Source: a virus (Duplodnaviria; Heunggongvirae; Uroviricota; Caudoviricetes). Taken from it: 12,751 bases of DNA. Of this stretch, positions 1 to 5,975 are shown in pieces; within the stretch, counting starts at the first letter, position 1; every line of letters begins with the position of its first letter. The notes under the pieces were generated by a model. The model saw nothing but the letters and a program-made list of their open reading frames with translations. It had not been told where the DNA came from and ran no database searches. Position numbers and translations under genes: made by a program. The DNA lies in the IMG/VR virus record IMGVR_UViG_2778261068_000001, positions 1 through 12,751 of that record. One strand, given 5' to 3'.

Positions 1-448
1 TCTCAGCATTTACTGCACTCTTTTCCGCCTGGCCGGCTGATATACCCGCATTCCTCGCTGACGTCTCTGCCTCTCCGGCATTCTTCTTCGCCTCCTCAGC
101 GTGACGCGCTGCCTCTTCCACCATCTGTTCAAAACGGCGCAGTGCCTCCGGCCGGGCATCCTCCTCCGTCATGGCACCGAGAAAATCATTCAGCGTACCC
201 GGCTGAGAATCTTCATACACGGTGATGGTCCCGGCATGTGACGGCGGGAATCCCTCCACCAACAGAATGACGCTGTACTGACCGTACTCAACGTCCATTG
301 TGTAACGCCCGGCTTCATCCGGGTTTTCTGAAGCCACCGTGTTCACCACCACCGTGATGCTGTTGCGCCTGGCTTTCAGCTGAATGGTGCAGTTCTGTAT
401 TGGTTTTCCCGCACCATCTTTCAGTACACCTGAAATCTGTACTGCCAT
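1..448 (-). CDS. stf: Side tail fibre protein, N-terminal 149 codons only (gene continues past the window edge)
   Basis: Hand translation from the ATG at 448-446 gives MAVQISGVLKDGAGKPIQNCTIQLKARRNSITVVVNTVASENPDEAGRYTMDVEYGQYSVILLVEGFPPSHAGTITVYEDSQPGTLNDFL..., which matches my recollection of the conserved N-terminus of lambda Stf (MAVKISGVLKDGTGKP...). GGAG lies 5 nt upstream of the ATG (plus-strand CTCC at 454-457). No stop codon before position 1. Not in the ORF track because it is truncated. Confidence 0.85.
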   Translation of the reverse strand, partial: MAVQISGVLKDGAGKPIQNCTIQLKARRNSITVVVNTVASENPDEAGRYTMDVEYGQYSVILLVEGFPPSHAGTITVYEDSQPGTLNDFLGAMTEEDARPEALRRFEQMVEEAARHAEEAKKNAGEAETSARNAGISAGQAEKSAVNAE

Positions 449-463
449 ACTCACTCCACAAAT

Positions 464-487
464 AAAAAAGGCGCCATTTCTGGCGCC
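464..487 (-). terminator. Intrinsic terminator-like hairpin between J and stf
   Basis: Plus strand AAAAAA(464-469) GGCGCC(470-475) ATTTCT GGCGCC(482-487). On the minus strand this reads GGCGCC-AGAAAT-GGCGCC followed by TTTTTTATTT, beginning 23 nt after the J stop codon (510-512). Confidence 0.6.
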
Positions 488-509
488 CGTTATTAGGGTT
501 ATAAATATT

Positions 510-3500
510 TCAACGGATACTGATGCCGGAAGCCGCTTTTTTGGTCACAATCACCGTACAGTCGGTGATATTGCCTGCCCCCTGATTGCCTTTCTGGAAA
601 ATCTTAAACTCCAGAGTGACGCTTCCCCTGCCACCCGGCATATCAATAACCGCACTGTAACTACCGGGAATGGCCCCTTTAGTTTCTCTGGATGCGATTA
701 ATACGCCGTTTTTGCGAACTTCAAATCCATAACCCGTGTACCTTGTACCTCCCGGGTTATTACCACTTCCCGGATCGGTATACGCTATACCGTTAAAGAT
801 AATGGGCGGGATAATAATCTGACGGTCAAAGTTATGATCATCGCTGATGGTGACGGTAACCGTCCCGTCTGGCGTTTCCGTGTTACCCCACGTACCGACT
901 TTTTTCGGGAAGGCTTTTGATACAGCTTTAACGAAATCCCCTCTGACCTGGGTCGCCTCCAGCATGCCCTTAATCGTACAGTTCTCACTTATCGTGACAT
1001 TGTTGAGCGTTCCTGAGTTCGCATTCACGTTACCGCTGATATCAGCGTTTTTCGCCGTCAGCCGCCCGTCCGGTGTCAGGGAAAATGCCGGAGGATTGCC
1101 GCCGCTGGTGATGGTCGGGGCCGTCAGGCGTTTCAGGAACACGTCGTTCATGAATATCTGATCGCCCTGACCAACAAACATTGGTCGTGTGTTGCCATTA
1201 GACGGATCAATAAACGCGATACGGTTAGCGGCAACCAGAAACTGGCTCAGTTTGCCTTCCTCTGTATCCTCCATGCTGAGGCCAATACCCGCGACATAAT
1301 GCTTACCGTCTTTGGTCTGCTCAATTTTGACGCCCCACATGGCGTTCCATTTATCGTTAGCGTCCTTCCACTCTTTCGAAAACTCCTCCAGTCTGCTGGC
1401 GTTATCTTCCGTCAGCTCGACTTTTTCCAGCAGCTCCTTGCCGAGATGGGATTCGGTTATCTGGCCTTTGAAAAAATCCAGGTAACCTTCCGCATCATCG
1501 CTCGCCTGACCGACAGCCTCCACGAATGCCGATTTGCCAACGGTGTTCACGCTGCGGATATAAAAGTAATAATCATGGCCCGGTTTGATATTGCTACTGC
1601 CGGCTATCCAGTACAGCGCCGTACCAAGATAACGCGCGCTGGTTTCAACCTGCCTGATATCGGCAATCCGCTTTTCCGAGAACCAGAACTCAAACTGCAC
1701 CGTCGGGTCATATACAGCCAGTTTCGGGACCGCCGTTATCTGAAAATACCCCGGTATCAGTTCAATAGTGACAGGCGCTGCAGGTGCGGCAATCCTGAAC
1801 GATACCGACGCCGGGTCGCCCTGCTGTCCCCACGCATTTACCGCCCGGACTGTCAGCCTGTAGTTCCCTGGCGCCAGTTGCCTGAAGCGGTATGTGGTTT
1901 CCGTCGTCCGGGCCGTGCTGACCAGCCGCTCACTGCCGTCGTCTGCTGCCACAGTCAGGCGAAGCATAAAGCTCACCCCCTTCACCACCTTCGGCGTGTC
2001 CCAGCGGGCCAGCACCTGATACTCCCCGCTGTCTGCCGAGACTTCGGCGGTCAGGTGCTGCACTGCTGGCGGCGTGACACCATTCACCGTGCCGCTCTGG
2101 TCGCCGTCAAAGTGCGCCCCGTTATCCACGATGGCCTCTTTCTCCGGCACATGCTGCACGGCGGTGATGGCATACGTGCCGTCGTCGTTCTCACGGATAC
2201 TCACGCAGCGGAACAGGCGCTGGCGCAGCGTCGGCAGCTTCAGCCCCCACACGCTGTATCCGGCAACGCCGTCAGGGATACGGTTCACTTTCACCTGCAC
2301 GCCGTCGGTGACGGACTGGACCTCCACGCTGACCGGATTGCCACTTCCGTCAACCAGGCTTATCAGCGTGGTACCGGAGGATGGCAGCGTGATTTCACGG
2401 TCGAGCGTCAGCGTCCGGGTCTGGCTGTTCACCGCCAGTACGCGCCCGCCGGTGCTGATACCGGCATAGTCATCATCGCAGATTTCAATAACATCACCCG
2501 GCACATGGCGAAGCCCTTCTGCACCCACGCTGAAGTCCACGGTCTGCGTTTCCAGCAGTTCCGTTTTAATCAGCCACAGCCCGGCTCGGTGTGCCTGCCC
2601 CCGGCTGGTACAGCCAAAGGCATCCATCTTCGTGACGTTACGACCGTAACGGGCAATGGCCTGCGTGTCCTCCACAAGCTCTGTTGCCGTCTCCCAGCCG
2701 TTGTTCGGGTCAATCCAGTTCACCTCAACGGCATTATGGCGGTCCTTCAGGGCGCTGAAGCTGTAGCGGAACGGCGCGCCATCATCCGGCATCACCACAT
2801 TACTGCGGTTATAGGTCCACACCTTATCCGACGGCCGGTCCTGCACGAACGTCAGCGTCTGCCCGTTCCATACCGGCATACAGCGCATCGCCGAGCAGAA
2901 ATCACTGAGCACATCCCACGCCTTACGTTGTGTGGTCAGGTAAGCGTTACAGGTGATGCGCGGCTCCGTACCGCCAGAGCCGTCCGGCACCGACTGGTCG
3001 CAATTCTGGCCGATGACATACAGCGCCCATTTGTCCACATCCGCCGCACCGAGACGTTTCCCCATGCCGTAGCGCGGGTGGGTCAGCATATCCCACAGAC
3101 ACCATGCCATGTTGTTGCTGTATGCCGGTTTAAACGTCCCGTCCCAGATACCGCTGTATTGCCGCGTCTGCGGGTTATAATTCGACGGCACCTGCAGAAT
3201 ACGCCCGCGAAGATGATAATTACGGCTCACCTGCTGGCTGCCGAACTGCTCCGAATCCACCTGCACGCCGACCAGTGCCGTGTTCGGGTAGCACTGTTTC
3301 ACATCGATGATTTCGGTGTATGACGACCAGAGCGTTTTGTTCTGCAGCTGGTCTGTGGTGCTGTCCGGCGTCATCCTGCGCATCCGGATATTGAACGGTC
3401 GCGGCGGCAGGTTATCCACCACCACCGAGGCCAGATACTGCGAGGTGGTTTTGCCCTTAATGGTGATGTCTTTTTCCGTCACCCAGCCACCATTACGTTG

Positions 3501-3923
3501 TATCTGAACCAGCAGGCGAACTTCCGACGGATTCCGGTCCCCCTTTGAAGTGGTTTCCACCAGTGCCTGCACACCGAAGGTCAGGCGCAGACGGTCGATG
3601 TTTGCCGACGTGATGGTCCGGGTGAGCGGATTGTCATATTTTAATTCTGCACCGATAACGGTTTCTGAACCGGAGGATTCAAATCCCTCCGGAGGTGTCT
3701 GCTCCTGCTCACCTGCCCGGAACACCACCGTGACACCGGAGATATTGGTATTCCCCTCACTGTCCAGCACCGGCGTACTGTTCAGCAGCACACTTTTTAA
3801 TCCGTCCACCGGACCTTCAATCGGCCCTTCACTGATGGCGTCTATCACGCTCAGCAGCTGGGATGATTTCAGGTTGTCCTTCGCTTCGCGCGGGGTATGC
3901 CCCTTACTGCTGCCTTTACCCAT
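510..3923 (-). CDS. J: Central tail fibre / host specificity protein J (1137 aa)
   Basis: N-terminus [20 protein letters not shown]... and most of the length match lambda gpJ (about 1130 aa) from memory. Correct position at the end of the M-L-K-I-J tail tip block. The last ~150 aa diverge from lambda. GAGGA sits directly against the ATG. Confidence 0.95.
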
Positions 3924-3937
3924 TCCTCACGCTCCAG

Positions 3938-3964
3938 AAACGACAAAACCGCCCTGAGGCGGTT
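3938..3964 (-). terminator. Terminator-like hairpin between I and J
   Basis: Minus strand AACCGCC-TCAG-GGCGGTT (plus 3947-3964) followed by TTTTGTCGTTTC. Lies between the I stop (3984-3986) and the J start (3923). Confidence 0.45.
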
Positions 3965-3983: not shown

Positions 3984-4631
3984 TCAGCGACCAATCACCA
4001 CAACCTGACCACCGTCCCCCTCGTCTGCCGTGCTGATCTCCTGAGAGACAACACGTGACCCCACGCGCATTTCACCGTACAGAACAGGCAGAACATTGCC
4101 CTGGGCAACCATATTGTCCAGTGACGAGAAATATGTGTTCTGCTTACCGTTATCCGTTGTTTGTGTGCGGGGAGTTCTGGGTTTAGGGGCCAGCATCTGC
4201 GCCACACCACCCAGGATCATACTGGCCCCTGCCGCATACATGCCCGATAAAGCCGCGGCACCCAACCAACCTGCGGGGTTCCACCATGCCACCGCAATCA
4301 GCGCCGCCCCCAGCACGGCCTGAAAAAGACCGCCACTTTTGGCTCCCGCCAGACGCGGCACAATGTGGATTACGGCACCATTTGCCAGCGGTTCATTAAG
4401 ACGGGCTGATAATTCAGTTTCACCTGTATCACGCCCGGCAATGCGTACCTGATACCAGCCGTCGCTCAGTTTCTGACGAAACGCCGGAAGCTGTGTGGTC
4501 AGCGCCCGGATGGCTTCAGCCCCCGTTTTCACACGAAGGTCGATGCGGCGGCCAAATCGTTGTAAATCCCCGTAAAGGCAGATGCGTGCCATGCCCGGTG
4601 ACGCCAGAAGGAGTGTGTGCGTCGCTGCCAT
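3984..4631 (-). CDS. I: Tail tip assembly protein I (215 aa)
   Basis: MAATHTLLLASPGMARICLYGDLQRFGRRIDLRVKTGAEAIRAL... and the C-terminus ...QTTDNGKQNTYFSSLDNMVAQGNVLPVLYGEMRVGSRVVSQEISTADEGDGGQVVVIGR match lambda gpI from memory. Overlaps the 3' end of K by 103 nt, as in lambda. Confidence 0.9.
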   Translation of the reverse strand: MAATHTLLLASPGMARICLYGDLQRFGRRIDLRVKTGAEAIRALTTQLPAFRQKLSDGWYQVRIAGRDTGETELSARLNEPLANGAVIHIVPRLAGAKSGGLFQAVLGAALIAVAWWNPAGWLGAAALSGMYAAGASMILGGVAQMLAPKPRTPRTQTTDNGKQNTYFSSLDNMVAQGNVLPVLYGEMRVGSRVVSQEISTADEGDGGQVVVIGR

Positions 4632-5272
4632 TTGTCGGTATACCTCTCTCGTTTGCTCAGTTGTTCAGGAATATGGTGCAGCAGCTCGCCGTCACCACAG
4701 TAAATGGCGGCATGATTCGGCACAGATGAACCAAAACAGCACAGCAGCACATCGCCCGGCTGCACCGCTGACAACGGTACCTGATACAGCCCTGTGGCCT
4801 CCAGATTATCCAGATAGAGATTCTGACCGTTACGCCACCAGTCATCCCCGCGGTGAAAATCCGGCATCTCAATTCCCGCCAGATGGTAAGCGTCCCGGAA
4901 CAGCGTGTAACAGTCCGTCACCCCGTGTTCAAAGCGCCGCCCGGTAAGATGTGGCACACAGCGGAACTTGTGAATCTCACCCCGGCAGACCAGCCACCAC
5001 GGCAAATCACTCTGCACCTGCAGCCGCCGGTCAGCCTCACTCAGCCAGGGCAGACCACCGGGGTGGCTGTGGACCAGCGCCACAATCTCACCCTGCATTT
5101 CTGCCTGCAGCCAGTCCTCCGGCGACAGCCTGAAATAATCCTCCGGCTCACCGGAGATATTCACGCAGGGAAAATATCTTTCCCCCTCCGGTGTTCTTAC
5201 CACGAAGCCGCACGACTCCGCTGGCGCACATCGCCGGGCGTGCGCCAGAATCGCTGATTCTGTTTCTGTCAT
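4529..5272 (-). CDS. K: Tail tip assembly protein K (247 aa) with MPN/JAMM and NlpC/P60 motifs
   Basis: Start taken at the ATG at 5272-5270 (MTETESAILAHARRCAPAESCGFVV...), 2 nt after the L stop codon. JAMM motif HxHx7Sx2D is present as HSHPGGLPWLSEAD. The C-terminal half carries a Cys (GVTDCYTLF) and a His (VPNHAAIY) consistent with an NlpC/P60 fold. The ORF track's extension to 5347 overlaps L and has no support. Confidence 0.85.
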   Translation of the reverse strand: MTETESAILAHARRCAPAESCGFVVRTPEGERYFPCVNISGEPEDYFRLSPEDWLQAEMQGEIVALVHSHPGGLPWLSEADRRLQVQSDLPWWLVCRGEIHKFRCVPHLTGRRFEHGVTDCYTLFRDAYHLAGIEMPDFHRGDDWWRNGQNLYLDNLEATGLYQVPLSAVQPGDVLLCCFGSSVPNHAAIYCGDGELLHHIPEQLSKRERYTDKWQRRTHSFWRHRAWHASAFTGIYNDLAAASTFV

Positions 5273-5276
5273 GGGT

Positions 5277-5975
5277 TTACTGCGAAAGTTTGTTGATGGA
5301 AAGGTAGCCGCCAAAGTTACCGAGGTTATTGCGAAACTTACAGCCACTCAGGCATTTGCTGCATTTATCCTTCGTGATATCGGACGTCGGCTGGTCATAT
5401 TCATCCGCGACAGCCGGACCGTTATAACCGCACTCATCACCGCGATAGGTCCAGGTGCAGGTGTTGGCCAGCATGATACGTCCCGGAAAAACAGCGCCAT
5501 CCGTTTCCGTCGGCGTGGACAGTACAAAGGAGGCACTCACCGCGCTCAGTTCGCTGCACTGCTCGATGCGCCAGCGGCTGATCACCTCCTGCTCCGGGTC
5601 TGCCTCGATGTTTCCGTTGACGAAGTTCACCGCATCCAGAAAACGGGCGTAAACCTTACGCCGAACCACCGTTCCGCCGACCAGACTCTGCATATCTTCC
5701 ACCATCCCGGTGACCATGCCGTGCAGATTAGAGACTTTCAGAGTTGGCCTGGCGCTGGCTCCTTTACCGTTCATCTCAAATCCGCTCCCCTGAATGGGGT
5801 ACGCCTGATACTGTCGCCCCTGCCAGGTGACCGGCTCACCTTTTTCGTTCTGCTCATTACAGAAAAAATAACGCTCTCCGCCGACTTCTGTCAGATCGAC
5901 TTCCCAGAGCACGACCAGCGCGGATTGCTCCGCTTTTGTACACTCATTCAGTGTTTCCTGCTGTATATCCTGCAT
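5277..5975 (-). CDS. L: Tail tip protein L (232 aa)
   Basis: MQDIQQETLNECTKAEQSALVVLWEVDLTEVGGERYFFCNEQNEKGEPVTWQGRQYQAYPIQGSGFEMNGKG... matches lambda gpL in sequence and in length. Has the C-terminal cysteine cluster (C..C...CSKCLSGC). Its ATG overlaps the M stop codon (ATGA). Confidence 0.9.
   Translation of the reverse strand: MQDIQQETLNECTKAEQSALVVLWEVDLTEVGGERYFFCNEQNEKGEPVTWQGRQYQAYPIQGSGFEMNGKGASARPTLKVSNLHGMVTGMVEDMQSLVGGTVVRRKVYARFLDAVNFVNGNIEADPEQEVISRWRIEQCSELSAVSASFVLSTPTETDGAVFPGRIMLANTCTWTYRGDECGYNGPAVADEYDQPTSDITKDKCSKCLSGCKFRNNLGNFGGYLSINKLSQ

Follow-up and report, generated by a model that had tools for sequence, protein, structure and literature searches.

A lom-less J–stf junction of the phage 21 type in the 434-like tail module of an Escherichia albertii prophage

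The 61 nt that lie between J and stf (positions 449..509) in the stretch of prophage DNA analyzed here, a window of 12,751 nucleotides, are very probably the kind of spacer normally found between cistrons of a lambdoid late (tail) operon, here in the lom-less arrangement of phage 21 and present as an inherited or recombined allele. The spacer holds nothing but the predicted rho-independent terminator known from the 3' side of J in 434-like phages and the stf ribosome-binding site. The lom-less state arose outside the prophage of strain CB9786, whose tail-fibre module carries a widespread allele by inheritance or recombination. Already sequenced and annotated elsewhere, and hence already known, this junction is a common form of the J–stf joint: the arrangement is real, but nothing out of the ordinary, being shared by phage 21 and about one in seven complete E. 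coli genomes.

The J and stf genes of the window

The whole window, taken as its reverse complement, is an exact match to a prophage of E. albertii on AP014856.1 (L004 1173..13923), a record on which the exact J protein is also encoded and which has been named as that of strain CB9786 (PMC13101514, 2026). The features listed here are all on the minus strand.

510..3923, minus: gene J, encoding the central tail fibre / host-specificity protein of 1137 aa; stop codon TGA, 512..510; from the list of open reading frames
1..448, minus: 5' part of stf (side tail fibre), ATG at 448..446, 149 codons, running off the low end of the window
449..509, minus: complete J–stf intergenic spacer, 61 nt, made up of a 21-nt AT-rich leader, terminator hairpin with T-tail, and stf Shine-Dalgarno
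469..488, minus: predicted intrinsic-terminator hairpin GGGCGCCA-GAAA-TGGCGCCT, from a terminator scan and folding
460..469, minus: terminator T-tail TTTTTTATTT, T6 at 469..464 followed by ATTT
454..457, minus: GGAG, the stf Shine-Dalgarno, separated from the ATG by 5 nt; its phage 21 counterpart is labelled ribosome-binding site
10999..11015 (U–V), 9559..9574 (T–H) and about 3943..3962 (I–J), minus: hairpins in other spacers

The J product matches the Pfam families of lambda gpJ, including PF24801, PF13550, PF24421, PF24489, PF09327 and PF12421, and aligns without gaps to J of phage 434 at 96% protein identity, both proteins being 1137 aa long. A 674-aa open reading frame antisense to J (1299..3323, plus strand) probably reflects codon usage across a long gene rich in G+C. 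The 149 codons of stf in the window match the prophage tail fibre N-terminal family PF08400 over profile positions 1-133 of 134 (E = 4.7e-69). J is thus followed by a PF08400-type stf on the same strand with no open reading frame between them, and the J stop at 510, the stf start at 448 and the 61-nt spacer given in the first-pass annotation are all correct.

Extension beyond the low end of the window showed that stf is neither truncated nor frameshifted. The full gene in the source genome is an uninterrupted 437-aa open reading frame (L004 13476..14789). Its product begins with the PF08400 domain, continues through a segment rich in Ala, Ser and Glu and collagen-like Gly-X-Y repeats (PF01391), and ends in a PF06820 domain; with the annotated side tail fibre of phage 434, also 437 aa long, it aligns without gaps at 93% identity. 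The gene 3' of stf (L004 14791..15060) encodes an 89-aa PF06820 protein which repeats the C-terminal domain of Stf and is not Tfa-like, and past about codon 107 the DNA identity to lambda stf drops to ~48-67%. Judged by its sequence, the fibre module is of the 434/EHEC-prophage type, with a collagen-repeat Stf and the 89-aa PF06820 protein. The stf/tfa frameshift of lambda PaPa, which had been proposed as a comparison, is inapplicable because the module is not of the lambda Stf/Tfa type. The suggestion that the phage carries both tip and side fibres holds as far as the intact stf gene goes, but an intact gene alone is no proof that side fibres are assembled. Further along (L004 14791..15798), the 89-aa PF06820 gene is followed by a hairpin with a T-tract, which resembles a terminator, and by nleG, a type III effector gene with a G+C content of 0.39; the host omptin and hya genes come after it. 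As this cargo follows the fibre genes, the prophage has placed cargo downstream of the fibres and not at the J–stf junction.

The terminator and ribosome-binding site in the spacer

Read in the direction of transcription, the spacer runs AATATTTATAACCCTAATAAC-GGGCGCCA-GAAA-TGGCGCCT-TTTTTATTT-GTGGAGTGAGT. The hairpin, U-tract and stf ribosome-binding site that the first-pass annotation saw in it are all present, as the hairpin at 488..469, the T6 run at 469..464 and GGAG at 457..454. The stem has eight pairs, seven of them Watson-Crick (six G-C) with a closing G·U, and is capped by a GAAA tetraloop. This hairpin was the top terminator-like site in a scan of positions 1..1500, and an 81-nt stretch containing it gave a folding energy of -26.4 kcal/mol, as against -16.1 ± 2.8 for shuffled sequences (z = -3.67). 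In an alignment of ten related loci all eight stem pairs remain paired; hairpin region and tail are invariant except for one pair, which shows a compensatory change from G-C to A-U in four loci. The support from covariation is modest, because only this one stem pair varies. The equivalent hairpin is annotated as a terminator in the records of phages 21 and 434. By sequence, then, the element has the features of a rho-independent terminator, with a GC-rich stem-loop and a U-tract 3' of the stop codon on the transcribed strand.

The hairpin is not a described RNA element, since an Rfam scan of the whole window returned no family at its gathering score. A promoter scan of positions 1..1500 found no sigma-70-like site, and so gave no hint that stf has a promoter of its own in the spacer. 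The window has similar GC-rich hairpins with a T-tract, followed by a ribosome-binding site, in its U–V, T–H and I–J spacers (40-60 nt each); the hairpin at J–stf is therefore no particular mark of a "moron site". The T–H position, at which the gp15 moron of HK97 is located (PMC3594210), is empty in the window. A slippery heptamer, A AAA AAG (9888..9894, minus strand), lies just before the TAG stop (9885..9887) of a G-like chaperone gene (9885..10271), and a T-like open reading frame (9583..9873) is in the -1 frame relative to that gene, as expected for the programmed G/GT frameshift of lambda.

The missing lom cassette

Relatives that have lom, such as phage 434 and E. coli MEI003, hold an extra cassette at the J–stf joint. 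Measured against the co-linear lom-positive MEI003 the indel is exactly 673 nt, and the sequence absent from the window comprises lom itself (600 nt), the leader before it with a ribosome-binding site, and the terminator that belongs to lom. The lom product belongs to PF06316 (E = 1.9e-120). In the window the junction reads TGA-AATATTTATAACCCTAATAACGGGCGCCAGAAATGGCGCCTTTTTTATT joined to TGTGGAGTGAGT-ATG. In MEI003 an identical 52 nt, TGA included, is followed across the first breakpoint by GCAGAAAAGCGAGAGGTAATT-ATG, the 600 nt of lom and TGA-TTAGCC...CAGCCCGCCGGTTCAGGCGGGCTTTTT, and then across the second breakpoint by TGTGGGGGGAAT-ATG. In short form, the J terminator with its TTTTTTATT is joined in the window to TGTGGAGTGAGT-ATG, and in both MEI003 and 434 it is joined to GCAG, lom and a closing GGGCTTTTT, which in turn precedes TGTGGGGGGAAT-ATG. 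The first 49 nt of the spacer after the J stop are therefore identical to the J–lom spacer of MEI003, and the last 12 nt correspond to the final 12 nt of the lom–stf spacer. This places the empty cassette site between 461 and 460, ± 2 nt owing to the ambiguity of the T residues, and both cassette breakpoints fall in T-tails after terminator hairpins.

All 61 bases of the spacer are explained by the J terminator and the stf leader. With three Lom alleles as queries, a tblastn search of the window and 23 kb of source genome gave nothing better than E = 0.36, and short-word blastn with the three lom alleles against the same sequences returned just chance 12-13-mers outside the spacer. No lom gene or Ail/Lom moron of family PF06316 lies between J and stf, and the idea that the spacer could be the relic of a deleted lom is ruled out, as no remnant was detected by either search and every base is assigned.

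The same picture emerged from the database. The best-matching sequenced phages (Stx phages, 434 and lambda hybrids) align to positions 1..1300 of the window in two pieces which span ~1970 nt, and where the phage records are annotated, they name the additional piece as Ail/PagC/OmpX or Lom; the two-piece alignment was likewise seen in 27 of the best 30 E. coli chromosomes. The first-pass reading of J followed directly by stf, with no lom between, is thus borne out by the list of open reading frames, by the lom searches and by the additional 673 nt in close relatives, and comparison of the junction with lambda and related prophages showed that lom is present in lambda, 434 and MEI003 and absent in phage 21. 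The G+C content, considered as a sign of a foreign origin of lom, was rejected, since lom (0.555) is indistinguishable from its flanks J (0.565) and stf (0.59).

The type strain of E. albertii, NBRC 107761, carries a second kind of lom-positive allele (L027 340..1162), in which the lom–stf spacer is longer and lom ends in a different terminator. A 9-nt direct repeat (TTTTTTATT ... TTTTTTTATT) brackets the cassette of this allele and makes a loss of lom by short-homology recombination easy.

Distribution of the lom-less junction

The frequency of the contiguous junction was determined with a 161-nt query centred on the joint, too short for the two halves of a lom-positive locus to join into one match, and genomes were scored as positive when at least 80% of the query was covered in one piece. 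The contiguous J–stf junction was found in 746 of 5426 complete E. coli genomes (~14%), including LF82 and NRG 857C, and an equivalent query for the lom–stf junction was positive in 4252 of the 5426 (~78%). Phages with the contiguous junction are 21, ev207, Tritos, HannyBb, PhiR11_1, PhiR63_1, mEp460, ev017, 4A7, 1W and 3W, in addition to a series of environmental lambda-like isolates; a 29-nt junction pattern with one degenerate position (R = G or A) occurs in 85 IMG/VR contigs, and the junction is also present in E. ruysiae and in Escherichia sp. E1V33. Phage 21 and the window have homologous spacers, with the same hairpin, the T6ATTT tail and the GTGGAGTGA leader.

Scanning a genome collection with the Stf N-terminus added few informative loci (E. 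ruysiae, Escherichia sp. E1V33 and the E. albertii type strain), and the majority of matches outside Escherichia were ascribed to lambda control DNA. These are low-coverage contigs with the lambda-type lom–stf arrangement (L014–L019, L022–L024, L028, L030 and others), several of them of about 48.4-48.5 kb, in assemblies of unrelated bacteria such as Pseudomonas, Shewanella, Oceanobacillus, Desulfosporosinus and Bradyrhizobium, and contamination with lambda control DNA is their most likely origin.

The closest lom-less E. coli relative is EPSSH018, with 98.5% identity across the junction. Its K-like C40 peptidase gene (L002 4029..4772) has an internal stop; the K gene of the window appears intact, with an open frame at 4529..5347 and a 247-aa product called in the source genome.

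Origin of the lom-less junction

The junction TTTTTTATTTGTGGAGTGA(G/A)T-ATG is the same across backgrounds which differ in their J 3' ends, terminators and Stf types: at least 17 spacer variants of the J 3' end plus terminator precede it, and the Stf open reading frames that follow range from 350 to 798 aa, the 437-aa type being rare among them. Alleles without lom have A at the sixth base of the stf leader and CAG at stf codon 4, and in lom-positive alleles the same two places read G and AAG or CGG, the one exception to the leader rule being the lom-positive E. ruysiae locus L032, which has A in its leader. Because these variants in the leader and first codons of stf mostly track the lom state, the lom-less state in the window is inherited and not a fresh deletion. 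As an absolute marker of the lom state, the leader variant (GTGGAGTG as opposed to GTGGGGTG) was rejected on account of L032, which is lom-positive and has GTGGAGTG.

The identity of the window to its relatives changes over short distances. Within the initial 64 nt of stf the window has 92-98% identity to lom-less loci as against 86-91% to lom-positive ones, and from about nt 130 of stf onwards 97-100% identity to the lom-positive MEI003; in the part of the spacer next to J it matches MEI003 exactly and is unlike the lom-less EPSSH018. This profile has the form of a mosaic joint, in which the lom state travels on a short segment and is reassorted by homologous recombination in the conserved sequences at the 3' end of J and the 5' end of stf. 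The alternatives that the phage either never acquired a moron or lost one, as they were put in the first-pass annotation, were right about the absence of lom, but the dichotomy itself does not stand, since the lom-less junction is a widespread allele exchanged by homologous recombination.

It is very improbable that a 434- or MEI003-like J–lom–stf arrangement has recently lost its cassette in this lineage by illegitimate recombination between the terminator T-tails. Both breakpoints do lie in T-runs, the J-side spacer of the window is that of a lom-positive relative, and the 9-nt direct repeat of TTTTTTATT around the cassette of the E. albertii type strain would be an ideal substrate for such a deletion. 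Nevertheless, the junction equals, base for base, that of phages and hundreds of genomes with other J and Stf modules, and the stf leader and the first 64 nt of the gene carry the lom-less variants and not the lom-positive ones. Furthermore, a joining of the common-type T6 runs predicts T6-GTGG, and what is observed is T6-ATTT-GTGG. The occurrence of the same junction on many backgrounds, the mosaic identity and the T6-ATTT-GTGG joint together indicate that the event was not local to the CB9786 prophage.

For the original event, wherever it took place, we lean towards a gain of lom. The lom-less junction would be ancestral, the lom cassette would have been added once, right after the J terminator, in a lambda/434-like ancestor, and the segment found in the window would never have held lom. 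Outgroups, the self-contained nature of the cassette and its status as a moron mildly favour such a gain on a lom-less backbone. In the more distant siphophages Opt-155 (a Serratia phage) and PhiR12_2_star a PF08400-type fibre gene directly follows the J-family gene, with gaps of 15 nt and 182 nt, respectively; the cassette has its own leader and terminator; lom is among the few lambda genes expressed in lysogens and is counted as a moron (PMC3594210, PMC7067206); and J and Stf modules of great diversity accompany the lom-less allele. Against an ancestral lom-less backbone are the similarity in composition of lom and its flanks, the fact that lom-positive is the majority state in E. coli, and the outgroups themselves, which are few and have fibre genes just 36-57% identical, while rampant recombination hides the history of this single segment. 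A single old deletion of lom could also have produced one junction sequence on many backgrounds: on that account the deletion made the phage 21-type junction, and homologous recombination in the J 3' and stf 5' ends then spread it, including into the window. The mosaic identity around the junction fits this too, and cassette alleles flanked by direct repeats do exist; but the outgroup phages have no lom at the J–stf position and nothing in the spacer resembles a scar, and we regard an old deletion as possible rather than probable. The gain of lom on a lom-less backbone is the reading to which we give some preference.

Function and significance

In lambda, transcription from the late promoter that has been modified by the Q antiterminator ignores intrinsic terminators. 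If the biology of lambda applies here, Q-modified late transcription would read through the hairpin during lytic growth and stf would be made along with J, while in the repressed prophage the hairpin would stop stray transcription leaving J. Because lom is missing, the lysogen would obtain no Ail/Lom outer-membrane protein from the J–stf locus, and so would have from this locus neither the Lom adhesin nor an outer-membrane protein of the serum-resistance type.

The value of these results lies mainly in annotation, in that the tail module of the CB9786 prophage can be placed as 434-like with a lom-less junction of the phage 21 type. They also provide a base-resolved example of a moron cassette as a common presence/absence polymorphism, a textbook illustration and not a discovery. 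A more speculative proposal, which we consider unlikely, is that cassettes bounded by terminators might enter or leave preferentially at the T-tail of the J terminator (TTTTTTATT), via short homologies between tails. The borders which fall exactly at the tails, the 9-nt repeat of the type strain and the similar hairpins in the U–V, T–H and I–J spacers speak in its favour; if it were true, intercistronic terminators would be general docking sites for the exchange of morons.

Comparison with known phages

Lambda (NC_001416, 18904..19649) shares with the window the gene order of the backbone and a homologous stf leader, TTTTTTGTGGGGTGAAT-ATG, and its Stf N-terminal domain has 88% protein identity to that of the window over residues 1-110. 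It differs from the window in the presence of lom, in the C-terminus of J and in the J–lom spacer; furthermore, the distal part of lambda Stf and Tfa are encoded by orf-401/orf-314/orf-194, frameshifted in the reference strain, whereas the window belongs to a module with a collagen-repeat Stf and a PF06820 C-terminus.

Morons were reportedly defined for HK97 and HK022, by Juhala et al. in 2000. The morons of these two phages have since been reviewed (PMC3594210). By that definition the lom cassette of the relatives qualifies as a moron, as it is a self-contained extra transcription unit with its own terminator, inserted between conserved genes and found in some relatives only, although it lacks the deviant G+C content expected of many morons. 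The window has no moron at this point, just the empty site. That the junction does accept cargo is shown by CAjan, a virulent siphophage with a small reverse-strand lipoprotein gene (L129 2185..2418) between J and a PF08400-type fibre gene.

Phage 434 (OL657226.1) resembles the window in the type of its J terminator and in the 89-aa PF06820 gene after stf, and is unlike it in that an Ail/Lom gene of 600 nt, equipped with a leader and a terminator of its own, separates the J terminator from the stf ribosome-binding site. The counterpart at the junction itself is phage 21 (OL657228.1, 19176..19233), in which J is directly followed by stf as in the window, and whose record has a terminator and a ribosome-binding site annotated between "central tail fiber" and "side tail fiber". 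A literature search found no explicit statement that phage 21 is without lom, and its absence there rests on the annotated record. The spacers of this type (21, ev207, Tritos, mEp460, ev017 and 4A7) are 58-61 nt long and have the same hairpin GGGCGCCAGAAATGGCGCC, the T6ATTT tail and, before the ATG, the leader GTGGAGTGA(A/G)T, the same as that of the window. Phage 21 differs from the window in the C-terminal region of J, with about 46-84% DNA identity per 100-nt block across most of the last 1200 nt, and in its Stf, which is of another type and 686 aa long; the window instead joins this junction to a J and an Stf of the 434 type.
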